DNA of 64,000 nucleotides from NCBI GenBank assembly GCA_964457455.1, contig CAYWJN010000001.1:5648-69647 (forward strand), in the 5' to 3' direction. Source of the DNA: an uncultured Candidatus Cloacimonadota bacterium. Lineage in GTDB: Bacteria; Cloacimonadota; Cloacimonadia; Cloacimonadales; TCS61. The notes under the pieces were generated by a model. That model made no database searches and was not told where the DNA came from. It saw nothing but the letters and a program-made list of their open reading frames with translations. Positions 8,440 through 35,581 of this stretch are shown in pieces (the stretch's first letter is position 1; each line of letters opens with the position of its first letter). A program made the translations under genes and the position numbers.

Positions 8440-9444
8440 ATGAACTTATTAAAAGTAATTCCCCACTTAGGATTTATAAAGTTGTTGGCATTGTCCGGAT
8501 TTCCCATAAAATCGACTGATGGCATAAAAGGCATAAAAGAGAAGGTCGTGGAGGAGAGTTTTAATAGCATAGATGATAAATATTATGAATATTATATCAA
8601 TGAAATGATGGATGATAAAGCAACAGCAACCATGGTCAAGAAAAATAGGAAAATCCGGGAAGATAATTCCGTGGAAATAGATTCTCTTAAACACAAACCT
8701 ATTATATCTGATCCTAATATATTGGTAAAACACATAAGGGGTGGAGCAGATATAACCACAGCCATGCTAAGTCCATATAGTAGAGAGATAAAAGATGTGA
8801 ACGGATGTGCTAAAAGTGTTTATCATATCTTGAGGTGCAAAAAATTGCGACAATATATTGAAATAAGTATATTGCTGGAAAGATTTAGGGCAGATATTGT
8901 AAAAAATTGGAATCGACATACACAGGAGAATGATTTTAAATTGAGTGAAACAAATCTATACTTTTATCTTTTATATTTCTGGGATGTTGCGAGTGGTTCT
9001 CTTAGAAAAAGAGGGGCAGATATAATGGATATTTATGAATATTTGGTATATGATAAGCAGAATCCTTATTATAGTCCCCACATAGAATTAATGTTCAACC
9101 CTGTGGCGGATGCCCTTTCATATTTTGGGTTAATGAATGAATTTGATAGAATGCAAGACATTAGAGATCTGCGGGGTAAGTCTGGCAGATTGATAAAATC
9201 ACGGTTATCCAAAAAACACCAATCTATAGGTCGTGGTGTGACAGAAATTTTTTCTCATACCGATAGCCAGTTGCAAGAAGATGCATCTAAGGGAGATAGC
9301 GCAGAAAGTTTAAGAGCCGAAATAAGGAGAATGATAGAAAGACTTAAAATAATGCCTCAAGAGAGGAAAACCCTGTATCAATTAAAAGACGAGGTGGTTG
9401 ATACAGGCAATATAGAACAAGATAGCCCCGTCAAAAATAAATAA
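8440..9444 (+). CDS. hypothetical protein
   Basis: 334-aa ORF tightly packed after the previous gene. Confidence 0.65.
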   Translation: MNLLKVIPHLGFIKLLALSGFPIKSTDGIKGIKEKVVEESFNSIDDKYYEYYINEMMDDKATATMVKKNRKIREDNSVEIDSLKHKPIISDPNILVKHIRGGADITTAMLSPYSREIKDVNGCAKSVYHILRCKKLRQYIEISILLERFRADIVKNWNRHTQENDFKLSETNLYFYLLYFWDVASGSLRKRGADIMDIYEYLVYDKQNPYYSPHIELMFNPVADALSYFGLMNEFDRMQDIRDLRGKSGRLIKSRLSKKHQSIGRGVTEIFSHTDSQLQEDASKGDSAESLRAEIRRMIERLKIMPQERKTLYQLKDEVVDTGNIEQDSPVKNK

Positions 9445-9462
9445 TAAAAGGAGAAAGAGACC

Positions 9463-9699
9463 ATGCAGTACTCGAGAATTAGAGATACTGTCCACAGGAA
9501 TGAATTGGCTGTAGGTAACTTGGTTGACTTCACTGATCAAACAAGTATAGATGTCACTCATAATTGGGGATATTATCCAGACGTAACATTAATTGACGGA
9601 GACGGTTATGTCATTGATGGGGAAGTTCAGCATACATCGGTCAATGCTTTTACCGTAACCTTTGTTGAAGAAACTACCGGCAAAATATTCTACAAATAA
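9463..9699 (+). CDS. small beta-rich protein, unknown
   Basis: 78-aa ORF with an AAAGGAG SD. Confidence 0.6.
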   Translation: MQYSRIRDTVHRNELAVGNLVDFTDQTSIDVTHNWGYYPDVTLIDGDGYVIDGEVQHTSVNAFTVTFVEETTGKIFYK

Positions 9700-9713
9700 A
9701 AGGAGAAAAGAAC

Positions 9714-10349
9714 ATGAAGAAATTAGTAATTATTTTGCTTGCGATGTTGTTGGTGACATCGCTATTTGCGAAGGACTTTAAGTCTGCAACTAATCGATTC
9801 TACGGGAAGGTGCAGACGGACAGTACCATGATCACTACTAAAAATGTGGGTACAAAATCTGATAGTGTAGCCTCCGTAGTAGAATATGGCGACGCAAAAT
9901 TCCATGTAACTGAAATTGCAATATCATCTGCCCACTTTGCCGATATACCTGGCGGAGCCGATTTGGCTTTGGGACAGTTACTGTATACTTTCCCCACGGG
10001 GGCAATAGTTGTCAAGGGCGCATATATGAATATTGCTTTGAATGAAAGTGATGGGAATATTACTGCAGACACCCCAGATGTAGGTATTGGAACTACGGTA
10101 GCATCGGGTGTTGTAAATGTGTTGGGCGGAACAGCCGCGTTTGAAAATATTTTAACCGGCCAGACCGCTACAGATTGTGATAGCACTTATACTACGAAAA
10201 CATTGGCATTAGCAGACCCCCTGGAGATTGAGACAGGTGGTGATAAAACAGTATACTTGAATGTCGCTGATGGATGGGCAGCTAGTGGTGAAGATGCATT
10301 GGAATATGTTGGAACAGTTGTGATAGAATGGGTATTACTTAAAGAATAG
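9714..10349 (+). CDS. protein with signal-peptide-like N-terminus
   Basis: MKKLVIILLAMLLVTSLFA-KD resembles a type I signal peptide. AAAGGAG SD upstream and a hairpin directly downstream. Confidence 0.65.
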   Translation: MKKLVIILLAMLLVTSLFAKDFKSATNRFYGKVQTDSTMITTKNVGTKSDSVASVVEYGDAKFHVTEIAISSAHFADIPGGADLALGQLLYTFPTGAIVVKGAYMNIALNESDGNITADTPDVGIGTTVASGVVNVLGGTAAFENILTGQTATDCDSTYTTKTLALADPLEIETGGDKTVYLNVADGWAASGEDALEYVGTVVIEWVLLKE

Positions 10350-10359
10350 CAAAGAAACA

Positions 10360-10384
10360 GGAGGGTGACATAGTGTTGCCCTCC
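10360..10384 (+). terminator. terminator-like hairpin (no T tract)
   Basis: GGAGGGTGAC / GTTGCCCTCC forms a 10-bp stem with two G-U pairs and a 5-nt loop, 11 nt after the stop codon. Confidence 0.4.
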
Positions 10385-10604
10385 ATTCAATAAATAAAGG
10401 GAAAGGTTTTTAGGACTATACATAGAAGGTTGTCATCTTCTCCTGTAAAACTTCCATATGGATTAAAGGGAACAATCGAAAGTATTTTGAGATCTGACAA
10501 AAAAACTTTGAAATATAGGTTTATGCCAAAGGGTATAGATTTCATTAAGACTATAAAAAATAAAGTCCCTAAAAAGTAGAATAATAAATAGGGGGATCAA
10601 TAGG

Positions 10605-11672
10605 ATGAAATGCCCTTGTATCATAAAAACATCGGGAATTAGGAGAATAAGTATGCTTCCAACAATAATTAAGATATCTGCAATAGAGAAGTATTCGTCT
10701 CCCAAATGGATCAAGATGATAAGGTCAGGCAAATTAAGTGAGAAGGCATTAAAAATTCTTGCAAATGCTGGATATAAAGATAGGACAATAAAACATCTTG
10801 GAGTGGGAGGAACAAGAGTCTCTGACTTGGTATTTACTAGTAGGGTGGGTAAAGCTGTTAGAAAAATACCTAATATAGAGGGGGTGTCGAAATATTATAT
10901 TCATGAGCCATATAATAGCCAAGCAAAGGAACATTTTGTATGGAATAAAGTGCAAAAATATTTGTCAAAAAAGAAGATAAAGGTTCCTCGATTGATAAAA
11001 CAAGATGGCCCAATAGGATATTATGAGCATGTTAAAGGTAGGAGCGTTGCTAATAAAGCAAAAAAATTATTTAATAAACTAGACGAATATGGAAAGCAGG
11101 GTGATAGAGTTAGGAGAATTCGGGTAAAGAATGCTAAATTAAGGATGTTAAGGATTCTTAATAAATCACCTATAGATGCTAAAACCATGCGAAAAATAAA
11201 AAGAAAATATCCGAGAATATATGATATGACGAATAGAAATCTTGTTGATAGAACGCTAGTAGACTTTGATATTCTAGGACCCCAAACTTATACAATGGAT
11301 AGAGGACCATCCAAGCATTATCGTGATACTTATAAAGCGTTTGCTAATGGAATGCGTACGACTGAAAACTATAAGAAAACGTTTCCTGGATATTTCAGCA
11401 GAAACAAAAATAAAATAATACCCTCCGTTATATTAGGAGGGGCTTTGGTTGCCGCTGGAATTAGAGAAGCAAAAAATAAAGATAAAAATGGAGTGAATCA
11501 AATCAAAAAAAATGCTATGATAAAATTCTCCGGGATGTTATCAGATATTGCCAGTGCTCGCAAAGCAACTAATGCTAATCCGTCAGAAGCACAGATTAAG
11601 GCAGAAAACTATAAAAAAGTGCCCATAAAGGCGAGAAAATTTATTTCAGGAATTATCAGGAAGATAAGATAA
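10605..11672 (+). CDS. leader-tagged protein-kinase-like protein, paralog A
   Basis: Starts MKCPCIIKTS, then a second degenerate leader MLPTIIKISA. Kinase-like motifs are LGVGGTRVSDLV, GKAVRKIP, YDMTNRN and LVDFD. Ends at NPSEAQIKAENYKK, where paralog B continues. Confidence 0.6.
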   Translation: MKCPCIIKTSGIRRISMLPTIIKISAIEKYSSPKWIKMIRSGKLSEKALKILANAGYKDRTIKHLGVGGTRVSDLVFTSRVGKAVRKIPNIEGVSKYYIHEPYNSQAKEHFVWNKVQKYLSKKKIKVPRLIKQDGPIGYYEHVKGRSVANKAKKLFNKLDEYGKQGDRVRRIRVKNAKLRMLRILNKSPIDAKTMRKIKRKYPRIYDMTNRNLVDRTLVDFDILGPQTYTMDRGPSKHYRDTYKAFANGMRTTENYKKTFPGYFSRNKNKIIPSVILGGALVAAGIREAKNKDKNGVNQIKKNAMIKFSGMLSDIASARKATNANPSEAQIKAENYKKVPIKARKFISGIIRKIR

Positions 11673-11711
11673 CATATTAATGAACAAAAATTATTTAAAG
11701 TAGGCGAACAA

Positions 11712-11834
11712 ATGAAATGTCCTAAAATATTGAAAATTGCCGATGTTGAAGATAGAGGGTTATGGCATTGGCATCCAGATGGTGATCTAAACTGTTCAGG
11801 CACTGTTGTAATCGAATGGGTGTTTGTTAAATAG
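11712..11834 (+). CDS. 40-aa chimeric mini-ORF: leader plus a copy of the C-terminus of the 9714 gene
   Basis: Translation is MKCPKILKIADVEDRGLWHWHPDGDLNCSGTVVIEWVFVK. The tail GTVVIEWVFVK parallels GTVVIEWVLLKE at 10313-10349. Confidence 0.4.
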   Translation: MKCPKILKIADVEDRGLWHWHPDGDLNCSGTVVIEWVFVK

Positions 11835-11836
11835 AA

Positions 11837-11899
11837 TACTGAGGAACCCTTCCCCTTCAGTAGGTGGGCGGTGGTATCAATCTACCGCCTGTTGATTTA
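11837..11899 (+). terminator. two tandem hairpins, terminator-like
   Basis: First hairpin is TACTGAGG / CCTTCAGTA (11837-11862, one bulge). Second is GGCGGTGG / CTACCGCC (11867-11889), followed by TGTTGATTT. Confidence 0.5.
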
Positions 11900-11922
11900 A
11901 AGAGATTGAAAAAGGAGAAATA

Positions 11923-12807
11923 ATGGGAGCATTTAAGACAATAGCTGGAACTACTGCCACCTGCGGCACATTGGGTGGAATGCTCGGTGGGGCAAGTTTA
12001 TGGCAAGGACACCGAAACTACAATAAGTATGTGCGGGGTGGGAGAAAAAACAGATTATCTTTTGGGCAATACATAAAGACGAAATCCGGTAAGGATCTTA
12101 AAGATGCCGCAATAGGGACAGCTATTGGGGGAGCTCTTGTGGGGATGGCAATAGGACCATCGGTGTATCGGCATAAAAGAAGAATGAGAGGGCTTAATGA
12201 AGCAGCAGAAAACATAAGAAGAGGGCTTAATGGAGCAGCAGAAAACATAAGAGGAAGGATGAACCGGGCAATGTGGGAAGATTTAAATAAAAAATATTAT
12301 GAATACTTTAAAAACTTAGGTGGGTTCGCGGTAAAGAGCGGAAATTTAGATAAAGCAATTAAAACGCTAAACATTAATAAATCGTCAGTAAAGACTAAGG
12401 CTCAGGTAAAAAAGATTTTTAGAGCAGCAGCAATGAAAAGCCACCCTGATAAAGGTGGTTCGGAGGATATTATGAAAGAAGTGGTGGGAGCATGGACATC
12501 CATTAAAAACTCAGGGTGGTTCAGTAAACTTGCATATGAGAGAGCACCTTATATACCGAAAACAGCGGTGTCGGGACGACTCGTCACGAATGCGGCGGAT
12601 GTTTCAGGAAAAGCATTTAATGCACTTATTAGGGGTCCGCTCACGAGAAGATTTCGCATGATGAGGAGCCCGAAGACAAGGAAGTATGTATTTAAGTCTC
12701 CAAGAAAATTAGATGAGTTACGTATGAAATACCTAAGAAGGAAATACAGGTTCCAACTCTATAAAAGTAACCCCGAAGCATCTGAATATTTTAAAAAACG
12801 CCACTAA
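11923..12807 (+). CDS. J-domain (DnaJ-like) protein with glycine-rich N-terminus and basic C-terminus
   Basis: KKIFRAAAMKSHPDKGGSEDIMKEV, with HPD at 12442-12450. N-terminal segments are GTLGGMLGGASLW and AIGTAIGGALVGMAIG. Confidence 0.7.
   Translation: MGAFKTIAGTTATCGTLGGMLGGASLWQGHRNYNKYVRGGRKNRLSFGQYIKTKSGKDLKDAAIGTAIGGALVGMAIGPSVYRHKRRMRGLNEAAENIRRGLNGAAENIRGRMNRAMWEDLNKKYYEYFKNLGGFAVKSGNLDKAIKTLNINKSSVKTKAQVKKIFRAAAMKSHPDKGGSEDIMKEVVGAWTSIKNSGWFSKLAYERAPYIPKTAVSGRLVTNAADVSGKAFNALIRGPLTRRFRMMRSPKTRKYVFKSPRKLDELRMKYLRRKYRFQLYKSNPEASEYFKKRH
12187..12252 (+). repeat. 33-nt in-frame tandem duplication (2 copies, 1 mismatch)
   Basis: AGAGGGCTTAATGAAGCAGCAGAAAACATAAGA occurs twice, encoding RGLNEAAENIR and RGLNGAAENIR. 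Confidence 0.9.
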
Positions 12808-12819
12808 AAGAGGTATTAA

Positions 12820-14667
12820 ATGAATTGTCCTGTAATACTGAAGAGAGCTTCTCCAAGATGGGTTAAGATGGTGAGGTCTGGGAAATTAGGAAGAGAGTCG
12901 CTTAAAAGACTGGCGGAAGCTGGGTATAAAGACAGGACGATAAAGCCATTAGGTAGAGGAGCTTTCAGGATCGCCGACCTCGTATTCACAGAAGGTATTG
13001 GAAAAGCTGTTAGAAAAATACCTTTAATAGACAGAAAATCTGCAAGCGATATTATAGGAATATATAAAGCTCAGGCAATGGAGCATAAGGTATGGAATAA
13101 AGCGAGGAAGTTAATGCACAAAAAGGGTATTCCTGTAGCGAAAATGGTAAAGAGAAATAAAGGGATTGGATATTATGAATACATTAAGGGGAGAAAAATT
13201 TCTGATAAAGCGGCAATAATAAAAAAAAATATGGTCCCTAATGAGTATCCAAGAGAGGGGACAGTAGCAGAAAAAATTAGATGGCAAAAAAGAATAATTT
13301 CTATAAACAAGGCAAGAGAAAAAGTTCATAAAATAATTAATGCAAATATAATAAACAAGTCGGACTATAAGAATATTAAAAAAAGGTTTCCTCATCTTAG
13401 AGATACTACCGCTCAAAACACAATAGGAAACACTTTAATAGACTTTGATATTACTAACTATAAGGCATTCCCTACAAACTTGGACATGAAACGTAACATT
13501 AAAAAAGATTCATACAGAGCAATGAGGGAGGCGTTAAATGACAGAATGCCCAATAATATTAAAATAGCAACAATGACCGGAGATATAAATAGGGCTCGAA
13601 AAGATACCAACATTAACCCATCAGATGCCCAAATAAAAGCCGAGAACTACAAAAAAGGGTCATTCAAGTGGAATGGACTGACTATTAAATTGGAGAACCC
13701 AAAGGGATCAACGAGATCCGGAACTGACCCAGATGGTAAATCGTGGTCAATAAAGATGAAATATGATTATGGATACATCTCTAATGCACAGGATGGGAAA
13801 GATGGGGACAAAATTGATGTGTTCATAGGAAGTCATCCAGAAAGTCAGATAGTGTATGTAATTGATCAAGTAGACAAGAACGGTAAATTCGATGAACACA
13901 AGTGTATCCTCGGGGCACTCACTGAAGATGAGGCTAGAAAAACATATCTCGCTAATTATGAGAAGGGATGGAAATGTGGACCGATCACGGCGATGACCGT
14001 AGAGCAATTCAAGGAATGGACTATGAAGGGTAGAACCGGAAGTCCTCTAAATAAACAAAAACTTTTTAAAGTGGGAAAAACAATGAATTGCCCCAGCATT
14101 TTACAAAAAAAGTCTTCCCTAAGGTCTATACTTAAATTAAGACCTTTACTTCGAGAAATAAAGGCGCACAAGATTCCTATAGAGAGGCATTTCATCCCAC
14201 TTAAAAAGATCAATCCCACTCTTAAGAGAATGCTCAATATAGAATATGGGGGAGTCAACTCAGATATTGGGGTAAGAGATTATATTAGATTGCTGCGTGG
14301 CGGGCAATTTCTCAAAGGTAGAGGAAATGATTTATCTATATCTATTCCTAAAGTGAAAAATGTTGCTGTCAGGAAGATCGTCTCTATGCTTCCAAGAAAA
14401 AATGAGCCGGCAGCAGTGTTGTCTCACGAACTGGGGCATGCTGTGAAGAGCAAAAAAGGATTATTGGATATTCTTAAGAAACAAACATATAACCAGAAAT
14501 ATTGGAAGAAGCCTACTGCTATGAACGAGTATTTATCAGAAGCGGAAGCAAGTGCTTTTGGATTGAAGACATTAAATAAAATGAAAGATAAGATTCCATT
14601 AAATATGCCAAAGATAAAGAAAATACTATATAAAAAGTTAAAAATTTATGGGGAGGATTTGTTGTGA
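12820..14667 (+). CDS. leader-tagged multidomain protein: kinase-like + conserved phage/plasmid domain + internal leader + HExxH metallopeptidase-like module
   Basis: Starts MNCPVILKRA. Kinase-like motifs are LGRGAFRIADLV, GKAVRKIP, HLRDTTAQN and LIDFD. The middle domain reads AENYKKGSFKWNGLTIKLENPKGSTRSG...YGYI...DGDKIDVFIG. A second leader MNCPSILQKK lies at 14083. HELGH is at 14425-14439. Confidence 0.65.
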   Translation: MNCPVILKRASPRWVKMVRSGKLGRESLKRLAEAGYKDRTIKPLGRGAFRIADLVFTEGIGKAVRKIPLIDRKSASDIIGIYKAQAMEHKVWNKARKLMHKKGIPVAKMVKRNKGIGYYEYIKGRKISDKAAIIKKNMVPNEYPREGTVAEKIRWQKRIISINKAREKVHKIINANIINKSDYKNIKKRFPHLRDTTAQNTIGNTLIDFDITNYKAFPTNLDMKRNIKKDSYRAMREALNDRMPNNIKIATMTGDINRARKDTNINPSDAQIKAENYKKGSFKWNGLTIKLENPKGSTRSGTDPDGKSWSIKMKYDYGYISNAQDGKDGDKIDVFIGSHPESQIVYVIDQVDKNGKFDEHKCILGALTEDEARKTYLANYEKGWKCGPITAMTVEQFKEWTMKGRTGSPLNKQKLFKVGKTMNCPSILQKKSSLRSILKLRPLLREIKAHKIPIERHFIPLKKINPTLKRMLNIEYGGVNSDIGVRDYIRLLRGGQFLKGRGNDLSISIPKVKNVAVRKIVSMLPRKNEPAAVLSHELGHAVKSKKGLLDILKKQTYNQKYWKKPTAMNEYLSEAEASAFGLKTLNKMKDKIPLNMPKIKKILYKKLKIYGEDLL

Positions 14668-14957
14668 GATGTCCAGGGATAATTAAAGAAGCCTTAACTT
14701 CAACATTGTTAGGGAGAGCGTCTACCAAAGCAATGACTAAAGCAATATTCTCTCATAATTTTATTAACGACCTTTCTAAATATAGAAGATACTACCCTGT
14801 CAGATCAATAAAACTACAAGTCAAGGCAATCCCTTATCAGGTTAACTACATGAGACAGGCAAAGAAATTTGAAAAGGCTAGGCAGATAAAGATGGTTAAG
14901 AAATTAAAAAGAGATGCAAGCGATTTGATATCTATAATAAAGAGGAGAATGAAATGA
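14664..14957 (+). CDS. leader-tagged small basic protein
   Basis: GTG start overlaps the previous stop (GTGA), with GGGGAGGA SD upstream. Starts MRCPGIIKEA. Confidence 0.6.
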   Translation: MRCPGIIKEALTSTLLGRASTKAMTKAIFSHNFINDLSKYRRYYPVRSIKLQVKAIPYQVNYMRQAKKFEKARQIKMVKKLKRDASDLISIIKRRMK

Positions 14958-15205
14958 AATGTCCAGAGATAATTAAGGAAGCCTATGTACCGGGATTAAG
15001 GACGGGTATTGGTATGTTGGGTGGTGGTATAGGAGCATCTATGCTAAATAGCTCATCCCAAAATAAAAGGATTAAAAAAGGTAAACAAAAAAAATACAAT
15101 CCTTTGTCTACAATAGGTGCATTTATGGGAGGAAGTTTGTTAGGTGCAGGAGCTGGCGGTTATGCAGATTATAAGAGAATGGGGAAATGGATTAAACAAC
15201 CGTAA
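14954..15205 (+). CDS. leader-tagged glycine-zipper mini-protein
   Basis: Starts MKCPEIIKEA. Contains GIGMLGGGIGASML and IGAFMGGSLLGAGAGGY. Confidence 0.6.
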   Translation: MKCPEIIKEAYVPGLRTGIGMLGGGIGASMLNSSSQNKRIKKGKQKKYNPLSTIGAFMGGSLLGAGAGGYADYKRMGKWIKQP

Positions 15206-15219
15206 GTAAGAAATATTTA

Positions 15220-16839
15220 ATGAATAAAGCAATAACTCGGAGCGATTTATACCAAGCATGGTTTAAACTTGATGGAGATGCCCTCTCTTTCAAATATTTA
15301 CCCTTTTGGATACCTATAATTAATACTTCTCGATTTACCCTTGAATCTCCTCAAGTTCAACGCCGGGTGATTCTAAAATGTTCGCGTAAAGTAGCCAAAT
15401 CAACAAATGCCGCAATTCTTGCTACCGGATTCGCGATTGAACATAAATATTTTAATACTATTATAACCTTACCTACCGATGCCCAGGTGAGTCGGTTTTC
15501 AACAGACATTCTGAAGGGGATTAACCGGGATTCTGTGGTCACGGATGTTATTTATTACGACCCTCGTTTAAACGAAAGACAAGTAAAAAACAAATCCTAC
15601 TTGACCGGCTCAAGAATACTCTTAGCTAATATTTATGTGTCGCCACTATCTGCTCGGGGAATTATCGGTGATTGCTATATTGAGGACGAGATGCAAGATA
15701 CTCCTGAACAGCACGCTAGTATTGTTGAGTTTGCGCTGAAAAGGTCTAAATATAAATATATGCTTAAGACGGGAACGCCGATGCAACCGGAGAATAGAAT
15801 CCAAACGACATTCGATGATTCAACAGGATGTGAATGGGCGATTAAATGTAGGGCATGCGGCCATTGGAATGTCGGGCTTGGCATAAAGAATATGGGTCTT
15901 AAGGGTATTATCTGCGAAAAATGTCATAAGAGAATTAGCACATGGTGGGGAGAATGGGTAGAGGCGCATCCCGGAAGACCTTTCGAGGGATTTTCAATTA
16001 ACGAGTTGATGATCCCCCCCGAAGCACCCTTTGCTTCAGATTGGGATACAATTTTATACGATTATAATAAAAAAGATGAGGTTGATTTCCATAATGAAGT
16101 TCTAGGGTTATCATTTTCAGACAATATACATCCTATAACATTGCAGAGGGTAGTATATTTATGCGATAGCGATAGGGAATACGTAAAAGATCCTTCTGAA
16201 ATTACTAAAAAAATGAAGGAGTATTCTTTTGCGGCATTGGATTGGGCTGTAGAAGATGACCCGCGGAAAAAATTGTCGAAAATAAAGTCCTATACCATGC
16301 TCACGATAGGATCATACGATCCTGGGTCGCGCAAGATTAATATAAATTTCGTCAGAAGATATTATGGAAAGGGAGAAGATGGATCTCCAGATGATATAAT
16401 TAACGATGTTGTCTATTGGGTAAACCACTTTAATGTATTGATTCTCGGAATGGATTATGGTGCTGGGCACAAAGAAAATATCCGGATAATAGAAATACTT
16501 GGTTTTAAGAGGACGATGGAATTTGAATATGTAGGAGAGTTGGCTGAGAAGGTGGCATATTATCCAGAATTCGAGAAATGGGTAATGGCGAGATCAACGG
16601 TAATGACTGGATTAATAGACGATATTGTGAGAAAAGGTGAATACAAATTTGCAAAATATCCTGGGGAGACCTCAGAATATGCAAAAGACTTGACAAACGT
16701 CTATCGATATCACGATACTGGAAAAAGAAAAATCAGATATGGGAAGTCAGGCACAGATGACTTTTTCCAGAATTTGGTTATATTGAGATTAGTGAAGAAA
16801 TACCATTTTGACGAATTAGAATATAGAGTAAAAAAATAA
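15220..16839 (+). CDS. terL: terminase large subunit
   Basis: Deviant Walker A LKCSRKVAKST and Walker B CYIEDEMQD. The C-terminal half has acidic motifs (AALDWA, LGMDYGAG). A CxxC...CxxC insertion lies at 15847-15924. Position is upstream of the portal and head genes. Confidence 0.7.
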   Translation: MNKAITRSDLYQAWFKLDGDALSFKYLPFWIPIINTSRFTLESPQVQRRVILKCSRKVAKSTNAAILATGFAIEHKYFNTIITLPTDAQVSRFSTDILKGINRDSVVTDVIYYDPRLNERQVKNKSYLTGSRILLANIYVSPLSARGIIGDCYIEDEMQDTPEQHASIVEFALKRSKYKYMLKTGTPMQPENRIQTTFDDSTGCEWAIKCRACGHWNVGLGIKNMGLKGIICEKCHKRISTWWGEWVEAHPGRPFEGFSINELMIPPEAPFASDWDTILYDYNKKDEVDFHNEVLGLSFSDNIHPITLQRVVYLCDSDREYVKDPSEITKKMKEYSFAALDWAVEDDPRKKLSKIKSYTMLTIGSYDPGSRKININFVRRYYGKGEDGSPDDIINDVVYWVNHFNVLILGMDYGAGHKENIRIIEILGFKRTMEFEYVGELAEKVAYYPEFEKWVMARSTVMTGLIDDIVRKGEYKFAKYPGETSEYAKDLTNVYRYHDTGKRKIRYGKSGTDDFFQNLVILRLVKKYHFDELEYRVKK

Positions 16840-21246: not shown

Positions 21247-21963
21247 ATGAGCAAAGTATTCGCGGGTATGAAACCTATAAAAATAAAAGGATATGCTGGG
21301 AATCTGACAACAGATGTAAATCAACTTGTTTGGCCACATAATATGGAATATATTTATGGTTCTGTATCAGAAACATTATATTTGTCCAGCTCTGATAACG
21401 GAGATGATCAGGATTATAAAGTGACAGGGGTAGATGCTAATTATGTTTATCAAGAGGTAGAGGTTACATCTTCGGGGCAAACCGGGGTAAAAATTGGAGA
21501 AGATAATTCTTGGAGAAGGGTGTTTAGTATAGAGAATATAGGAGACACCAATAATGCTGGCGACATATATATCGGTACCGAATCTGCTCCGACAGGCGGA
21601 ATACCTAATGATAACAACATTAGAGGTATGATAGAAACCGGAAAAAATAAGAGTGAGATGGCTCTCTATACAGTGCCCAATAAGAAAAGGATCTTCATTA
21701 AAAAGATTATTCTGTCAGAAGCGGGTGCAGATGATGGGAGTTCGCTTATGTCTTTGAATGTAAGACCTTTTGGGAAAGTATTTAAACGGGAATTATCTGT
21801 GTCCCTCCTGAATGGAGTGGCAGAAATAGATTTAGAAGAACCAATAATAGTTGAGAGTAAATCAGACATTGAAATACAAGTAGTCAGCGGTGCGTCTAAT
21901 CCGGGTAAAATAACAGTATTAGTTGAAGCTGGAATAAATCCATTATTCTATGCAGGAGAATAA
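21247..21963 (+). CDS. hypothetical structural protein
   Basis: 238-aa beta-rich ORF with an AAGGAG SD. Confidence 0.6.
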   Translation: MSKVFAGMKPIKIKGYAGNLTTDVNQLVWPHNMEYIYGSVSETLYLSSSDNGDDQDYKVTGVDANYVYQEVEVTSSGQTGVKIGEDNSWRRVFSIENIGDTNNAGDIYIGTESAPTGGIPNDNNIRGMIETGKNKSEMALYTVPNKKRIFIKKIILSEAGADDGSSLMSLNVRPFGKVFKRELSVSLLNGVAEIDLEEPIIVESKSDIEIQVVSGASNPGKITVLVEAGINPLFYAGE

Positions 21964-22846
21964 CGTGCCCAGTGTCAGTCAGAACCAACAAAAATTAATG
22001 GGACTTGTCTATGCAGCCAAAAAGGGCGAAATACCAGTCTCTGCATTACATGGTCCGGCTAGGCAGATATACGAGAAAATGCCCAAAGAAAAAATCAGGG
22101 AATTTGCTAAAACTAAGAGAAAGGGGCTTCCAAAAAAGGCTTCACTACAAAGTGAGGTTATGAGGCAAATGGCCATTAGAATAGGAGGAGGTAGCGCAGT
22201 AGGGGGTGGGCTATCATATGCTGGTACTCTTAAAAACCAATGGGGAAGGTATAAAAAAAAGAATCCATCAGCGACATTTAAACAATTTTATTCTAATAGA
22301 ACACGACGAAATAAAAATGAACTGAAAAAATCTGTGGGTGTGGGTATACGATTAGGGATGTTGGCAGGATCTTTTATCCCGTACAATCACGCAAAATTGC
22401 GGGGCGCATCATATGATGGTTTCAGGCGTGCATATCAACAATACTCAGGGTCGCCGAACATTCCAAAGGCTACCATAAAAAAGAATTTAAGTACTTTCGG
22501 ATTAAAGATGAAAGGAGTTAACTCAAAAAGTCAGGTAAAACAAGCTTATTGGGCAACGATGAGGAAAGTGCATCCCGACAAAGGAGGCAATGAGGAAATT
22601 GCTAAAACAATCAATAGAGCATTTGATGATGTGTCAAAAACGGATTGGTTTAAGAAATTAGCGTATCCCAATATATTGAAGATGGCGCGGGGCAAATCTA
22701 TGCATTTACTTATAGAAAAGAAGGCTTTATGTCCATGGGTATTAAAGGAAGCAACCAAAAGGTGGATACAATCAGCAAATAAATCCATTAAAAGTCGAGG
22801 TACGGAAGGTGTGTGTTCTGGAGCAAACTTTGGTGGACCTACTTGA
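21950..22846 (+). CDS. J-domain protein paralog with leader-like motif near the C-terminus
   Basis: KQAYWATMRKVHPDKGGNEEIAKTI, with HPD at 22571-22579. LCPWVLKEATKRW lies at 22727 onward. An alternative GTG start at 21965 follows GGAG. Confidence 0.7.
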   Translation: MQENNVPSVSQNQQKLMGLVYAAKKGEIPVSALHGPARQIYEKMPKEKIREFAKTKRKGLPKKASLQSEVMRQMAIRIGGGSAVGGGLSYAGTLKNQWGRYKKKNPSATFKQFYSNRTRRNKNELKKSVGVGIRLGMLAGSFIPYNHAKLRGASYDGFRRAYQQYSGSPNIPKATIKKNLSTFGLKMKGVNSKSQVKQAYWATMRKVHPDKGGNEEIAKTINRAFDDVSKTDWFKKLAYPNILKMARGKSMHLLIEKKALCPWVLKEATKRWIQSANKSIKSRGTEGVCSGANFGGPT

Positions 22847-22917: not shown

Positions 22918-23616
22918 ATGGATGTTAAGATAATCGTGCTTATTATAGTAGTGCTAACTGGCAGCATTTATCACTTTGCCTATCGAAATGGTGTAAACGA
23001 TACAATCGTTAGGCAAGAGGAAGACCTTGTGTTTATGGATAGCAAGGTGGATTCCTTGACGGAGAGTATAAGTGCGGTTACTCATCAGGCGAATAATTGG
23101 AAATCGATAGCAGATTCGCTATTTACTAATCCCAAGATTATCAAGGATACAATATCAATTATTGTCACAGAAGATGGAGAAACTATTTATGATACTCTCA
23201 TGGTGGCTAATGCTGCTTCCCACACATTAGATTATAGTGGCGATAATGCAATAAAAGTGCGAAAACTCTTTACAGCCGAAGGGGATACTCTGCAATTTGA
23301 TATTCATGAGTGGATAGATATTGATGTAAATCTAGATAAAGATGGAGTAATGTATATCTTTGATAAATTGAGATATCAGATAAAAAATGTGAGGCTCAAT
23401 TGGGAAAGAAAATATATTAAAACCGTTGATAAAGGACAGATATTCTTCGTAGGGGAGACCCAATATGATTATAATCCAGAAGTTAATAATAATAAACAGA
23501 GATTAGATGGTTTTGTAGGCATAGATATCATCTTTGATGAAAGATATGGAATTGGATTAAAGGGGAATACAACAACGGTTGGACTGATGTTTAAATATAA
23601 ACTAATAGGATGGTAA
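22918..23616 (+). CDS. membrane-anchored protein (N-terminal TM)
   Basis: Hydrophobic N-terminus MDVKIIVLIIVVLTGSIY. AAAGGAG SD upstream. Confidence 0.6.
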   Translation: MDVKIIVLIIVVLTGSIYHFAYRNGVNDTIVRQEEDLVFMDSKVDSLTESISAVTHQANNWKSIADSLFTNPKIIKDTISIIVTEDGETIYDTLMVANAASHTLDYSGDNAIKVRKLFTAEGDTLQFDIHEWIDIDVNLDKDGVMYIFDKLRYQIKNVRLNWERKYIKTVDKGQIFFVGETQYDYNPEVNNNKQRLDGFVGIDIIFDERYGIGLKGNTTTVGLMFKYKLIGW

Positions 23617-25673: not shown

Positions 25674-27662
25674 ATGATCAAATATATTGACCTCCCATCT
25701 TACGATAAGAATGGGAACCCCACTGTCCAGCCGATTAATTTTTATGGCATGGAGAAAGTGGCTAATTACAATTACATGCCCAAAGATGCTCAGGAGTTTG
25801 TGGCGAACATAACGCCGGTAAAAAATAGGGTCTTCTTGCTGATCAGTGCGGTTGCCGATGAGTGTTGGGGAGCAAATAGTAATTCAGATTTCTTCCCAAC
25901 TATGAGTCTAAGTAATCCTACGGATGATTGGGGGTATAAAACTTACCTTAAGGCACATTATTTTCATCGCCATGAGAATAAAGACCCAGCCAAAGGGTTC
26001 GGTAGAGTGATTTTCTCCACATGGGATGAGATGATGGGCAGAGTGCTGGTAGTTGCAGAGGTGGATACCCTGAAGGATTTGGACACGAAGCAGATGCTGG
26101 ATAGTCACCAGCATATTCCGACATCGATGGGCATGAGGGTTCCTTATGATGTTTGTCGGGTATGCCATCCTAAATGGAAAGAATTCTACAAGATTCCGGA
26201 AAATGAAATGATCAAAATATCTATTTCCGGCGATATTGATGAGATAAAGGCGATTGGCAAAAAGTATGGCGTTGATTTGTCATATATTACTGAATTGAAT
26301 GACGAAGAATTCAAGGAAACTGATGATGGACAAAAGAAGAGTCTCGGAAGAGGTCCTGTTGGGATTCACTCAACATTGAACAAATATTGCGACCATATGA
26401 AGTACATGAGGGGTAGAATGGTGCCCTCAACCGGTATAGTTGTCTCTGTGGTCAATATGAGACCTAAGTTTTTCGATATAAGTAAGGTGGGAACGAATGC
26501 TGAAAAATCCAGTTATGTCCTGCAGAAGGTTGCTAGCAAAGATGACTCTGGCAGAATAACAGAAGAAGAATTAATTGAAATAGAAAAAGCCTCCGAGAAC
26601 AAGAGGGCAGAAGATAAGAAGGCAGATATTGAAAAAGAGGTAGAAGGCCAAGTATTAAGTGATGATCATATGGCGATTAACAATTATATCGGTGAAAAAA
26701 TAGTCCCGGAATTGAAAGCATCTGAAATGGATCTTCCGGTGGGAACAATAAGTGAGATTGCAAAATATCCCATTGATGATATTCTGACAACATTCTTGAG
26801 TGCGGGGGCATACCCTCGTCCACGGGAATTTCAGAGGATTATCTTAATTCAAATGGGGAAAAAAGATGATGCAGATGAATATGATAGACAGAAAATAGTT
26901 ATTCCGGATACAATAGAGGGAATTCCAACATCTGGGGAATGCTTACCAGGAATAACCTTCTCTCCAGATAAAATTAATAACAATATTTTTGATATCATAA
27001 AACCGTTTTTAATGCAAAGGTCATATTATAGACCATGCATGATCAAGAGAATCGTGATGGTAAAGAGGGCAAATGAAATTAATGCATATTTAGATCCGCC
27101 CAAAAATCATAAATCGCCCTTACCTGGAATATTAGGAACCATCGCTGCTACCTATATGTTGTCGAAAACAAAAGCAGGAAAACACCTTGTCCCGCTTGTT
27201 AAAAATATAAAAGGTAACCCAAAACTCTGGATAGCCGCCATTGTCGGCAGCGAGGTGGCTTCGCGTTTATTTAACTATTCGCGGGAAGAAATGGGTAATA
27301 ATATGGTTAAGACATCTGCTAAATATACGAATATAGCTACCTTGGTTGGGCTGCCCGTGGCATCTTATTTATATGCTGGGCATGTTTATAATAAAGCCAA
27401 ATCGGGAAGACATATCAGCGGTGTTGAAAAATTCGTGGCCAAAAATCCTGGAGGGGTTGGAATTGCTGCTGGGCTTACCGCTAATCCCCATACTCGAAAA
27501 GCAATAAAAGTAATACTTAAGGGAGTGGTAGGGAAGCATGCCGAACTTGATATGTTAATAAAAAATGGAATGGATTTTAATGGGATGGATATAACGCAAT
27601 ATCCTATAGAAGATAGAGATAGCATTATTGCATCGATGTGGAAAAATCTATATGATAAATAA
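25674..27662 (+). CDS. prohead serine protease (HK97/S78-like N-terminal domain) with long C-terminal extension
   Basis: The three blocks recalled for this family appear in order. The His block is YFHRHENKDPAKGFGRVIFSTWDEMMGRVLVVAEV. The Ser block is IPTSMGMRV. The late block is FFDISKVGTNAEKSSYV. Position is just upstream of scaffold-like and capsid genes. Confidence 0.55.
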   Translation: MIKYIDLPSYDKNGNPTVQPINFYGMEKVANYNYMPKDAQEFVANITPVKNRVFLLISAVADECWGANSNSDFFPTMSLSNPTDDWGYKTYLKAHYFHRHENKDPAKGFGRVIFSTWDEMMGRVLVVAEVDTLKDLDTKQMLDSHQHIPTSMGMRVPYDVCRVCHPKWKEFYKIPENEMIKISISGDIDEIKAIGKKYGVDLSYITELNDEEFKETDDGQKKSLGRGPVGIHSTLNKYCDHMKYMRGRMVPSTGIVVSVVNMRPKFFDISKVGTNAEKSSYVLQKVASKDDSGRITEEELIEIEKASENKRAEDKKADIEKEVEGQVLSDDHMAINNYIGEKIVPELKASEMDLPVGTISEIAKYPIDDILTTFLSAGAYPRPREFQRIILIQMGKKDDADEYDRQKIVIPDTIEGIPTSGECLPGITFSPDKINNNIFDIIKPFLMQRSYYRPCMIKRIVMVKRANEINAYLDPPKNHKSPLPGILGTIAATYMLSKTKAGKHLVPLVKNIKGNPKLWIAAIVGSEVASRLFNYSREEMGNNMVKTSAKYTNIATLVGLPVASYLYAGHVYNKAKSGRHISGVEKFVAKNPGGVGIAAGLTANPHTRKAIKVILKGVVGKHAELDMLIKNGMDFNGMDITQYPIEDRDSIIASMWKNLYDK

Positions 27663-30098: not shown

Positions 30099-31106
30099 AT
30101 GAATATAGATAATACACAATTAATAAAAGAGGCGAACGATATTCTGCAAGACCTTGCGATGAATGGTCGTGAGGCAAAAGATAATTTTATAACGAAATTC
30201 GGAACTTCTCTGGAAAATTACGTCAAGAGATATGTAAGGGAAGAGGCTTTCTCTGAGAAACTCTTGGTCAATAAAACCATGTCACCGAAGGATCCGGGTA
30301 TTCAAGAGACCGAAGATGCTGATGTATTTTACGTACTTGACAAGAAGGAAATCGGAGCAACCGCTGCCGAGGTCTCTATAAGAGGTGATACCCAACCCAT
30401 TTTCGTAGACACAAAAAAATATAAGATATGGATCGGCAAAATTGAAACAGAACGGCACAAAAAACCATGGCTGGAACTTGAAACATCTTCTGCTTCCGAT
30501 CTTGTTGATATGGTAACGAAAAATGGTGCCGAAGCAATAAGGCGAACTCAAGATTTAGGCTTTATCAAGAATGTTGCTTCCATATTGACAATTACGGGTA
30601 ATCATGTTGGTGGAGACACCACAGTATATACTGATACTATCGATTGGACAAATAGTGGTAGAAAAAAAGATCTTACGAACCTAATGTCCTATATCACACG
30701 ACAAGGACTTGTGCCTGCTAAATGGTTGATGTCTCAGACTGCATGGAATGATATGCTTGCATTTGATGCTGGTGAAGTTGGTAATCTTGCTGGAGAGACT
30801 TTTAAAAACGGTATAGCGCAGAAAGTCCTGCTGGATATTCCTGTCATTACAACCATAAAGGCAGACCTTAAAAATGATGATGAAACTATTTACTATTTTG
30901 ATAAAGAAGGTGATAGCGGCGAGCTCTATACAGATATCTATTTGTTTGTAGATCCATCTTATTTGGGTAAAAACATCAAAATTGGAAGCGATAAATCTGA
31001 TTCCAAATGGGAATGGGATGATTTCATCTGGGGTGCATGGAGATATACCGGTCACGGATTTGGCGACACTCGTGGTATCTGTAGGATGAGAATCCGAATT
31101 AAATAA
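30099..31106 (+). CDS. putative major capsid protein
   Basis: 335-aa ORF with a strong AAAGGAG SD, following the protease and scaffold-like genes and preceding a strong terminator region. The N-terminus carries LIKEA at 30120-30134. Confidence 0.55.
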   Translation: MNIDNTQLIKEANDILQDLAMNGREAKDNFITKFGTSLENYVKRYVREEAFSEKLLVNKTMSPKDPGIQETEDADVFYVLDKKEIGATAAEVSIRGDTQPIFVDTKKYKIWIGKIETERHKKPWLELETSSASDLVDMVTKNGAEAIRRTQDLGFIKNVASILTITGNHVGGDTTVYTDTIDWTNSGRKKDLTNLMSYITRQGLVPAKWLMSQTAWNDMLAFDAGEVGNLAGETFKNGIAQKVLLDIPVITTIKADLKNDDETIYYFDKEGDSGELYTDIYLFVDPSYLGKNIKIGSDKSDSKWEWDDFIWGAWRYTGHGFGDTRGICRMRIRIK

Positions 31107-33538: not shown

Positions 33539-35581
33539 ATGAGTAGAAATGGTGTATTTACAAACATACTATATCAAATACAAGGGAGTAGCCTGGTCGC
33601 GCCCACGAGAGGGGCCGTTGTTGTTGGTGTCCCATTGAGGGTATCGAAAAAAACTTATCATGGACCGATATTGGTAGGCGATCTGACTATTGACGCTACA
33701 GAAGACAATAAAATGAAATTAAATGATGCTGAGAAAATGCAGGCAAACGGTGACATGAAATTGTTCATCAGAAAAGCTGGCGAAGAGGATCCTGCTGCTA
33801 TTCAAATGTCAACAGCATATTATTTCAACACAAACCCCACTATCAGTAAAACAAATTATAATAATGATGGCATTGCGACCATAACGTTCCTCTCAACTGA
33901 TTTCTTGCGACAGATTGGCAAAAACTATGGTGGCGCTAATTTAACCTATACTATGGATGCTGGGGGTGAAATAGTTACGGTTGGAGGCTCAAACGCAACA
34001 AAATTTATGTCGCTATTAGAGGTTGGGCAATGTTTTTATCATGGAGACGATGATAAGTATTACGAGATATTGTCTATTGATGTGGGCAATAGCCAGTTTA
34101 CTCTTGTTGAGGTTGTAACAGGGGCATTGGCTGCCAGTGTGGATGATAGCATATGGTATGATTATCTTGGGTCTAACATGAATACCCCGAAAGTCAGACG
34201 TCCTGTTCTCCTTTATGATATTATAGTTCAGAAAACAGACATTAGCGGACTTTATACCATTACATCGGTTGGTGATCTCGTGGATAAGTTTGGATCGGAG
34301 AGTCTAGAAGACCCAGACAGCAATCTGGCTTTTGGTGCGTTTTTACATTTGGCCGCTAATGGTGGAGTCAATCAATTTAGGATTTATGCTATTCCTGTTG
34401 ATGGGACCGACGCATTATCAACGATATTGGCTGCTAATACAAGTTGGGTTGCTGCCCAAGAGTCAATTAATGGGGTATCAACCGCATTCTTTATAGTTCC
34501 CCTAACAGACAATGAAACGGTTTTGAGCGGATTTAAAACCTGGGCAGAGACACAGTCCGGAACAGACTATAAACGTGAGAAACAGGTATTTATTTCGGAA
34601 AAAGTAGTAAACGGGGGCAACGGACTTACCTATGGAGAAGATGGAGATGAATTTACTATCTCTGAAATTGCGGCGGCATCAGATGGATCAAAAACAGTGG
34701 TTACAATAGGGGCTGGCGAGGCCGCAGACATTAAAGCCGGAATGGTATTTTCTGCAACTTATGGCGGAATAACCGTTGAGTCTGATGTTATTGCTGTTGA
34801 TACTTCGAATGACACATTTACTGTCAATAAAGATTATGGTAGTACCTTTGGAGACCTTTCTGCGGAAGTATTATCCTGGCCACAGGATAGTCTATTCTGT
34901 GATAGTGGATATACTCCTCAAACTGATGCAGATACAGCGGTTACTGTTCCAAATGGCTATGATAGTCAGCGAGTAGTATTATGTGGTCCATATTATGCAA
35001 TGATGGGAGACACAAAACTATTTGGTTATCATATTGCTGTGATAGTGGCCGGTTATGTCTCTTCAAAAATATTGGGTTATGTATTCACTAATGATGCACT
35101 TCCTTTGATTACTTGGCTACCTACCATTAATTATTTCACAATAAATCAACTTGAGGCAATTAAAGACTCTGGGTGGTTTATGTTACACCAGGAAATGGAA
35201 GGGGCACCTATTGGTATTTATCATCAGAAAACAACCGCTCAGGCTATTCTTGAAAAAAAAGAGTTATCAATAGTAATCGTGACTGTCAGCGTTGCTCAGG
35301 CTATTAGATCAACCCTTAGACCACATGTGGCAAAAGGGGTAGATAATAGCATCTCCCACGAAGCAACTAATTCGGCTAAAAATAGGAGATATATCAAAAA
35401 ATTGAATAACGATCTAGCTACTATCAGATATAAGTTTGTTAATGAAATAGAATGTTTGGCTGACTTTAAAGTAATTGGAGTTGCTGCAAATGTGGTAAAT
35501 AGAGATCAAGTCGATAACAAGGTTGAAATAAAGCATTATTATCCAGTCAACAGAATAAACAATTATATTTATATAGTGTGA
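33539..35581 (+). CDS. tail sheath protein
   Basis: 680-aa ORF directly upstream of the tube, chaperone-frameshift and tape-measure genes, which is the classical contractile-tail order. Confidence 0.6.
   Translation: MSRNGVFTNILYQIQGSSLVAPTRGAVVVGVPLRVSKKTYHGPILVGDLTIDATEDNKMKLNDAEKMQANGDMKLFIRKAGEEDPAAIQMSTAYYFNTNPTISKTNYNNDGIATITFLSTDFLRQIGKNYGGANLTYTMDAGGEIVTVGGSNATKFMSLLEVGQCFYHGDDDKYYEILSIDVGNSQFTLVEVVTGALAASVDDSIWYDYLGSNMNTPKVRRPVLLYDIIVQKTDISGLYTITSVGDLVDKFGSESLEDPDSNLAFGAFLHLAANGGVNQFRIYAIPVDGTDALSTILAANTSWVAAQESINGVSTAFFIVPLTDNETVLSGFKTWAETQSGTDYKREKQVFISEKVVNGGNGLTYGEDGDEFTISEIAAASDGSKTVVTIGAGEAADIKAGMVFSATYGGITVESDVIAVDTSNDTFTVNKDYGSTFGDLSAEVLSWPQDSLFCDSGYTPQTDADTAVTVPNGYDSQRVVLCGPYYAMMGDTKLFGYHIAVIVAGYVSSKILGYVFTNDALPLITWLPTINYFTINQLEAIKDSGWFMLHQEMEGAPIGIYHQKTTAQAILEKKELSIVIVTVSVAQAIRSTLRPHVAKGVDNSISHEATNSAKNRRYIKKLNNDLATIRYKFVNEIECLADFKVIGVAANVVNRDQVDNKVEIKHYYPVNRINNYIYIV

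Follow-up and report, generated by a model that had tools for sequence, protein, structure and literature searches.

Does a gene lying among phage packaging and structural genes encode a genuine J-domain protein, and what would the phage use such a protein for? The question is raised by an open reading frame (ORF) at 11923..12807 on the + strand of a 64,000-nt stretch of contig CAYWJN010000001.1, here called the window; the genome as a whole spans at least 134 kb. The 294-amino-acid (aa) product, ORF294, carries the tripeptide HPD. J domains use helix II and the HPD to engage ATP-bound Hsp70 and set off hydrolysis, whereupon Hsp70 clamps onto the presented client. An original prediction, made from the letters of the window alone, had described the gene as a J-domain co-chaperone encoded within a cluster of cargo genes. 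Our analysis indicates that ORF294 is most likely a class-C co-chaperone that would recruit host DnaK to co-encoded effector or cargo proteins.

The gene is real, and its immediate surroundings are as follows.

11923..12807, + strand: complete J-domain protein gene encoding ORF294, with an ATG start and the stop included (ORF list).
11870..11889, + strand: terminator-like stem-loop upstream of ORF294 (consensus scan, weak evidence).

A Shine-Dalgarno sequence (AGGAG, 11913-11917) lies 5 nt before the ATG; overall, the promoter and terminator consensus scan of the region was uninformative. ORF294 is not an assembly artefact, because the identical protein recurs on seven metagenome contigs (longest, 134.6 kb; two sample pairs). 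The peptide quoted in the original prediction was found, with its HPD encoded by caccctgat at 12442-12450, as were both glycine-zipper stretches (GTLGGMLGGASLW at aa 15-27 and AIGTAIGGALVGMAIG at aa 63-78) and the very basic C-terminal tail, in which 25 K and R residues face 6 D and E residues. The whole protein has a net charge of +44 and an isoelectric point (pI) of 10.7.

We examined the J domain at the level of the single protein and of its family. ORF294 alone matched Pfam DnaJ (PF00226) with an E value of 1.1e-4 over aa 148-188, corresponding to profile positions 5-47 of 63, and the best match of a single-sequence search of the Protein Data Bank (PDB) was the Tim14 J domain (2guz_A; E value of 4e-4), with which it has HPDKGGS in common. 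The NCBIfam models gave DjlA as the top match, but a very weak one (16 bits versus a cut-off of 162), and the NCBIfam DnaJ models reached 12-14 bits versus cut-offs of 338-619. Among the family members, 121 of 134 were matched by Pfam DnaJ (best E value of 6.7e-12), with P0099, P0024, P0102, P0065, P0134 and P0044 above the Pfam cut-off. All 51 matches of the family profile to the PDB at an E value of ≤1e-3 were J-domain proteins (best, 4.9e-10; Tim14 structure, 3e-9), and hhalign aligned the J domain of Escherichia coli DnaJ with a probability of 97% (E value of 1.2e-10). Hence, the single protein stays under the Pfam cut-off, but the family-level profiles do score as a J domain.

The predicted structure agrees with this assignment. 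An AlphaFold model of ORF294, built with the family alignment, displays the compact four-helix J fold expected by the original prediction, with helix-HPD-helix geometry, the HPD in the loop between helices II and III, and predicted local distance difference test (pLDDT) values of 94-96 over aa 141-205. The top 23 Foldseek matches in the PDB were all J-domain-containing chains, with Tim14 at rank 1; their root mean square deviations were mostly about 2-5 Å over 50-65 residues, and the E values were weak (≥0.08) because the J domain is short. Structural matches in BFVD were dominated by J-domain proteins of phages, polyomaviruses and giant viruses. Helix II of ORF294 carries the basic residues K159, K163, K164, R167 and K172, and we take K163, K164, F166 and R167 to be the counterparts of R22, K23, Y25 and K26 of DnaJ, counted back from the HPD. 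Judged by the sequence profiles and the model together, ORF294 very probably contains a true J domain. The Pfam scan of ORF294 yielded no DnaJ_C and no DnaJ zinc-finger match, and there is no glycine/phenylalanine-rich (G/F) region. Because the G/F region, the zinc finger and the DnaJ C-terminal domain are missing, and the J domain is internal or C-terminal, ORF294 belongs to class C (type III) of the J proteins.

From the N terminus to the C terminus, the protein is built as follows, all on the + strand.

11944..12003, +: glycine-zipper segment 1, aa 8-27, AGTTATCGTLGGMLGGASLW; in the family alignment, G18 is conserved to >90%.
12100..12162, +: glycine-zipper segment 2, aa 60-80, KDAAIGTAIGGALVGMAIGPS; G74 is >90% conserved, and there is a weak match to Pfam Gly-zipper_YMGG.
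12163..12315, +: long basic helical linker, aa 81-131; AlphaFold helix with a pLDDT of 72-83.
12343..12537, +: J domain, aa 141-205, with helix I at 142-148, II at 159-173, III at 181-195 and a short IV at 198-202.
12442..12450, +: HPD tripeptide H174-P175-D176, read from the sequence, between predicted helices II and III.
12538..12804, +: basic C-terminal extension, aa 206-294, net +19 by charge count, starting with the degenerate leader-like APYIPKTA (12544-12567).

A low-confidence helix spans aa 18-38 in the AlphaFold model, and the hydrophobicity of the glycine zippers is moderate, with a Kyte-Doolittle 19-aa maximum of 1.39 against the usual transmembrane threshold of 1.6. The linker contains an in-frame tandem duplication of 33 bp in two copies (12187-12252; RGLNEAAENIR/RGLNGAAENIR; Tandem Repeats Finder, period 33, 96% matches) that looks like a recent slippage or duplication event. 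Helix IV carries the family motif WFSKLAY. The C-terminal extension ends in an AlphaFold helix (aa 260-293, pLDDT of about 80), and at 89 aa it is uncommon, as most relatives end 5-50 aa after KLA.

The relatives define a family. While a word-indexed homolog search gave 3 proteins only, an exhaustive HMMER search revealed at least 174 representative clusters (50% identity) at an E value of ≤1e-3. The HPD was present in 148 of 151 relatives among the matches listed, and about 135 relatives share the signature KTKxExKKxYRxxAxKHHPDxGGxxExMKxxNxAWxxxxxSxWFxKLA. In the family alignment, G18, G74, K159, G178, G179, K202 and L203 are each at least 90% conserved, and the HPD is invariant, but the members were chosen by an HPD-containing signature. 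The order of the parts is glycine zipper 1, a basic loop (TFKQY), glycine zipper 2, a basic helical linker and a J domain with a WFxKLA end. Members are basic throughout, with a median pI of 10.1 and 96% of them above 9.5, and the Pfam glycine-zipper membrane families match a minority of them (17, 11 and 7 members).

The distribution of the family points to viruses. In 50,697 cultured-phage records, there was no nucleotide match to the region and no tblastn match to ORF294 at an E value of ≤1e-3; the family consensus matched nothing beyond the HPD core of Aeromonas and Morganella T4-like phage proteins. A search for related loci with a trimmed J-domain alignment was dominated by generic J domains. 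In 185,579 representative cellular genomes, none of the 87 J-domain matches covered the family-specific C terminus, which was covered by 5 of 84 IMG/VR matches and by all metagenome relatives. As far as the search patterns used can show, the family thus looks virus restricted. Four PHROGs families matched (13942, 15863, 7739 and 9210), all labelled "unknown function." Phage-encoded J proteins are already known as a kind, so the family is not categorically new; what is new is its architecture, the WFxKLA helix IV, the strong basicity, the apparent virus restriction, the presence in multiple copies and the modular tie to polyvalent effector arrays.

A search of the window with the family hidden Markov model found exactly two copies, ORF294 and a second gene.

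21950..22846, +: J-domain paralog, 298 aa, with DUF3008 at aa 10-63 followed by the glycine-zipper/linker/J core (HPDKGGN, WFKKLAY).

Pfam recognized both parts of the paralog (DUF3008, E value of 1e-13; DnaJ, E value of 2.2e-4). The paralog matched ORF294 in BLASTP with an E value of 2e-13, and in a three-way alignment, it and the ortholog P0005 of the sister phage L086 aligned with ORF294 across the whole core. Contig L007 carries a further fusion of DUF3008 with the family J protein; on L006 the two are adjacent, and on L174 DUF3008 lies nearby. Literature searches on DUF3008 and on the samples found no paper. Directly after the paralog, ORF 22918-23616 has a weak Rz-like spanin PHROG match (E value of 8.6e-6), with no Pfam support on a re-scan.

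The genes of the relatives bear on the claim that a J-domain gene is unusual in a head-morphogenesis region. In this phage lineage, such a location is recurrent and not exceptional: the window holds two copies, and the genes of relatives adjoin genes for the large terminase subunit (TerL), portal-like and major capsid protein (MCP)-like proteins, sheath and tube, and baseplate. In particular, the family gene lies directly before TerL on L007, after portal/MCP-like genes on L019, between sheath and tube on L001, after baseplate genes on L006 and after a homolog of the 922-aa gene of the window on L035, and family genes lie among structural genes in about six lineages. In L086, P0005 occupies the syntenic position and is 42% identical to ORF294 over aa 3-212. 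There, ORFs of 653, 341, 77 and 207 aa precede the J gene (P0005), and eleven ORFs, among them one for a kinase-like protein of 241 aa, separate it from TerL.

Two relatives join the J domain covalently to other modules. P0144 (429 aa; L174, about 8 kb upstream of a terminase) consists of the leader MNCPRMIVKMA, an InPase domain, a glycine zipper and a J domain, and its InPase is 75% identical to that of the window. P0059 (793 aa) combines InPase, an HEVGH metallopeptidase, glycine zippers and a J domain. Thus, the modules that are split between ORF294 and its neighbour form one polypeptide elsewhere. These fusions lend real support to the suggestion that delivery or assembly of ORF294 goes together with that of the cargo set.

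The genes around ORF294 are linked by a short peptide as well. Between 6.2 and 25.2 kb, the sequence [KRN]-C-P-x-[IV]-[ILV]-K-x-A marks no fewer than 12 ORFs or boundaries between modules within an ORF.

6201, 10605, 11712, 12820, 14089, 14664, 14954, 22730, 23769, 24125, 24649 and 25141 of the window: leader motif positions or ORF starts.

Usually, this leader forms the extreme N terminus (MKCPxILK...) of consecutive small ORFs, and it also stands at internal module boundaries. Its copies differ in synonymous codons, so it is the peptide that is conserved and not the DNA. Each of the two J genes of the window precedes a run of leader-tagged ORFs, and in L086, M-[KR]-C-P-x-[IV]-[IV]-K stands at or near the N terminus of 10 of the 11 ORFs, the exception being a stand-alone InPase protein of 245 aa with an internal variant only. 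The J proteins themselves do not have the leader at the N terminus; leader-like motifs follow their WFxKLAY directly, in P0005 as TPVILRKK, in the paralog as YPNILKMA and ALCPWVLKEA, and in ORF294 as the degenerate APYIPKTA. Other lineages have other short motifs (FxDELEKIA and FWxGFEKRA), and many family members run on as KLAF-LKGFEKKA; in a direct test, the motif after the J domain equalled the N-terminal leader of the neighbours in 4 of 13 loci only. The leader may serve for packaging, for processing or as a handle for chaperones. A site for the prohead protease (x-hydrophobic-E↓K-x-A), suggested by FEKKA and LEKIA elsewhere, was considered and rejected as a general rule, as this lineage has I or L in place of E.

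The array in which ORF294 is embedded comprises the following genes.

10605..11834, +: upstream cassette of a 355-aa kinase-like paralog and a 40-aa leader ORF in the same frame (ORF list, motif scan).
12820..14667, +: 615-aa polyvalent-type protein, with the leader MNCPVILK, a kinase-like N-domain, InPase at aa 269-401, an internal leader and an HExxH metallopeptidase.
14664..15205, +: two small leader-tagged ORFs of 97 aa and 83 aa (ORF list, motif scan).
15220..16839, +: large terminase subunit, which closes the array (Pfam GpA_ATPase, 2.5e-8; PHROG 675, 1.2e-40).

The original prediction had a kinase-like gene on either side of ORF294. ORFs do flank it there (10605..11672 and 12820..14667), but the kinase label derives from motifs only. 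Both have a common N-domain with the motifs LGxGxxR..DLVF (G-loop-like), VRKIP, E-H, D-x4-N and DFD, which resemble a protein-kinase core and what would be expected of the truncated kinase of Iyer et al. The domain had no match in Pfam, NCBIfam, PHROGs or a PDB phmmer search; 3 homologs only were found, and an AlphaFold model from 4 sequences was unusable (pLDDT of 39.8). The downstream gene is better called, from its sequence, kinase-like plus InPase plus HExxH metallopeptidase: Pfam matched InPase (PF18823) with an E value of 1e-50 and Peptidase_M91/M48 weakly, and its internal leader, MNCPSILQ at 14089, separates the InPase and peptidase domains.

In the upstream cassette, the 355-aa ORF stops at 11670-11672 after the first approximately 18 aa of InPase (NPSEAQIKAENYKK), and the frame after its stop reads NEQKLFKVGEQ-MKCPKILK, paralleling NKQKLFKVGKT-MNCPSILQ within the 615-aa protein. 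It has the appearance of a degenerated copy of the 615-aa polyvalent gene and could be either a pseudogene or a case of read-through. The 211-aa gene at 9714-10349 ends in GTVVIEWVLLKE, and the 40-aa ORF (11712-11834) ends in GTVVIEWVFVK, which is the C terminus of the L086 homolog of the 211-aa gene; therefore, the 3′ end of the 211-aa gene has been duplicated around an inserted kinase-like cassette, and 10350-11834 looks like the insertion. The 211-aa protein, which has a signal-peptide-like N terminus (MKKLVIILLAMLLVTSLFA) and no family matches, is conserved in L086 immediately upstream of the J gene.

Some further observations concern the rest of the window. The 83-aa ORF (14954-15205) consists of the leader and two glycine-zipper segments with a basic loop between them, that is, the N-terminal half of the J protein standing alone, and L086 has similar leader plus glycine-zipper ORFs at 9297-9704 and 12008-12694. 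Farther downstream are, at 30099, a gene with a weak resemblance to MCP and, at 33539, one for the sheath. A portal was sought in ORF 25674-27662, which had no match in a PDB phmmer search or in PHROGs; "portal-like" stays a guess, based on the position before the MCP-like gene and on a split match around an InPase segment in L007. Every real-looking window ORF of ≥90 aa lies on the + strand, the GC skew stays positive along the whole 64 kb (0.11-0.27), and no tRNA genes were found in the window. Precomputed Pfam matches on the identical metagenome contigs place an adh_short short-chain dehydrogenase/reductase gene, which may be an auxiliary metabolic gene, at 1756-2640.

Comparison with known systems delimits what ORF294 may be. 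By both sequence and fold, the best PDB match is Tim14/Pam18 (DNAJC19) of the mitochondrial import motor (Foldseek probability of 1.0; TM-score on target of 0.64), which likewise has a minimal C-terminal J domain behind a hydrophobic segment and shares the HPDKGGS. However, nothing is similar outside the J domain, no Tim16- or Tim44-like partners of the phage protein are known, and the phage protein differs by its two-segment glycine zipper (doubtful as transmembrane), its WFxKLA helix IV and its basic tail. A Tim14-like function in pulling or refolding translocated proteins is, by this analogy, speculation. E. coli DjlA resembles ORF294 in having a hydrophobic N-terminal part, which in DjlA is a membrane anchor, ahead of a C-terminal J domain, but DjlA is cellular and, given its score relative to the cut-off, ORF294 is no DjlA ortholog. 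The T antigens of polyomaviruses, found among both profile and fold matches, are viral J-domain proteins that hijack host Hsp70, but they belong to eukaryotic viruses and have an N-terminal J domain with unrelated partner domains.

Phages offer closer parallels. Rki of the T4-like phage RB43 is, like ORF294, a phage-encoded type III J-domain protein; reportedly, it is an ORFan that lacks a glycine zipper, has its J domain at the N terminus and acts on sigma32. Binding of Rki to host DnaK has been shown experimentally (PMC3486835), and moraphages encode DnaJ/DnaK (PMC12619734). As for the neighbours of ORF294, Iyer et al. (2017) described InPase, the truncated kinase and the Zn-peptidase as hallmark domains of polyvalent proteins, predicted virion packaging and injection for those polyvalent proteins that contain InPase, and found the truncated kinase in polyvalent proteins of phages of Bacteroidetes and Verrucomicrobia, with stand-alone copies too (PMC5512222). 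The neighbouring 615-aa gene, with its kinase-like, InPase and Zn-peptidase domains, fits this description, and stand-alone cassettes lie nearby in both cases. In contrast, the text of Iyer et al. mentions a J or DnaJ domain 0 times (PMC5512222). Polyvalent proteins are defined by at least two effector domains in a single polypeptide whose gene accompanies virion or packaging genes. P0144, P0059 and the 615-aa gene fit this definition, while ORF294 has one recognizable domain.

Taken as a whole, the data are probably best explained by a class-C J protein of an undescribed family that acts via host DnaK on co-encoded proteins. In such a mechanism, helix II (K159, K163, K164, R167 and K172) and the HPD loop would engage host DnaK in its ATP-bound state and set off hydrolysis of the ATP, and DnaK would then clamp the polypeptide held close by the non-J parts of ORF294. 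The clients would be the co-encoded effector or cargo proteins, which ORF294 may hold in a soluble or unfolded state so that they can be loaded into the head, or may have refolded after passage through the tail into a new host. The original prediction of a phage co-chaperone that recruits host DnaK has been borne out as far as the J domain is concerned; the recruitment is what we infer naturally from it, and we consider it likely that ORF294 recruits DnaK for purposes of the phage.

Several observations weigh against this interpretation. ORF294 alone scores 22.7 bits, under the Pfam DnaJ gathering score of 27.8. The glycine-zipper segments are moderately hydrophobic with positive charge on both sides, and they do not by themselves establish membrane anchoring or a mode of client binding. 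Unlike its neighbours, ORF294 has no N-terminal leader, its degenerate leader-like APYIPKTA standing only after the J domain. No Hsp70 gene is present among the window ORFs scanned; the window covers 64 kb, and the rest of the genome (at least 134 kb in all) might encode an Hsp70 partner. Finally, the family also adjoins nonstructural genes, for instance those of a 2000-aa RNA polymerase and an SNF2 helicase on L089. At that locus (L089/L090, 355-10828), P0006 directly follows a single 2000-aa polypeptide with both beta- and beta′-type RNA polymerase domains, together with an SNF2-family helicase.

Other explanations differ in where and when the protein would act. Tentatively, ORF294 might itself be an injected effector: packaged in the head and released from it together with the DNA, it would recruit DnaK at the entry site and there refold or pull in co-ejected polyvalent modules or reprogram the heat-shock response as Rki does. 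In favour of this possibility, J domains are fused to InPase and peptidase modules, for which packaging is predicted (PMC5512222), but the fusions belong to relatives and not to ORF294. PHROG matches of the InPase are annotated as minor head protein, virion structural protein and DarB-like, and the genes lie among structural ones in the lineages mentioned. Internal head proteins are often very basic, as this family is. An import-motor J protein as the best structural match would be in line with injection as well, yet the similarity to Tim14 may reflect the shared minimal J domain alone, and the missing N-terminal leader speaks against an injected ORF294.

The protein might instead stay in the cell, unpackaged, as a late assembly factor with which DnaK keeps aggregation-prone glycine-zipper or cargo proteins soluble until head or tail assembly, a possibility that we consider about as probable as injection. 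It is consistent with the co-orientation and contiguity of ORF294 with packaging and structural genes and with the runs of leader-tagged small ORFs that both paralogs precede. Viral J domains, namely those of polyomavirus T antigens, take part in capsid morphogenesis (PMC3486835), which provides a precedent. However, this explanation leaves aside the covalent fusions of J domains to effector enzymes, the extreme basicity and the variable position of the genes next to tail, head or RNA polymerase genes.

A membrane-anchored J protein of the DjlA/Tim14 type, in which the glycine-zipper hairpin in the inner membrane concentrates DnaK, for instance to modulate envelope-stress signalling, lysis timing or superinfection exclusion, appears unlikely. 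The hydrophobic N terminus with a C-terminal J domain does mirror DjlA and Tim14, the best NCBIfam match, though weak, is DjlA, Pfam glycine-zipper membrane families recognize some members, and the paralog is followed by the ORF with the weak Rz-like spanin match. On the other hand, the Kyte-Doolittle maximum lies under the usual transmembrane threshold, the strongly positive charge on both sides of the segments would conflict with the positive-inside rule, and the DjlA score is a small part of its cut-off. Combining anchoring with injection, one can imagine a co-ejected virion J protein whose glycine-zipper hairpin sits at the inner membrane or the ejection conduit, with DnaK as a capture-and-refolding (or pulling) motor for leader-tagged modules. 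The modules would pass the tail unfolded, the K-CPxIL-K leader would be a DnaK or targeting handle, and the whole would be a phage analogue of the Tim14-mtHsp70 import motor; we regard this analogy as improbable in its full form.

There is little to recommend the view that the J domain is a counter-defence decoy, competing with host DnaJ or titrating DnaK and so blunting chaperone-dependent sensing of the phage. Phage sensing by bNACHT25 reportedly depends on host DnaJ (cited in PMC12619734), and the polyvalent-protein neighbours are thought to be anti-defence effectors; however, the conserved glycine-zipper hairpin would be left unexplained. That the J domain is nonfunctional, whether its HPD occurs by chance in a basic helical protein or the region is a structural remnant of J type comparable to Tim16, can practically be dismissed, since, for all the single-protein Pfam score under the curated threshold and the weak Foldseek E value (0.08), the HPD is near invariant over about 150 diverged relatives, the basic helix II is conserved, the profile E values reach 5e-10 and 1.2e-10, and the J fold is modelled at high confidence.

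Phage J proteins are known, but to our knowledge Rki is the sole one that has been studied, and we know of none linked to the genes for virion or effector proteins. The family described here, which is large, unannotated and seen in viral and metagenome contigs only, joins a J domain to a glycine-zipper hairpin. Its members are time and again encoded beside modules for which injection is predicted, or are fused to them. The family gives annotators a name for several PHROG families of "unknown function." If the link is functional, proteins that are packed in the head and squeezed through the tail would stay loadable and regain activity by borrowing host Hsp70, and a chaperone-recruiting domain would join the repertoire of polyvalent proteins.

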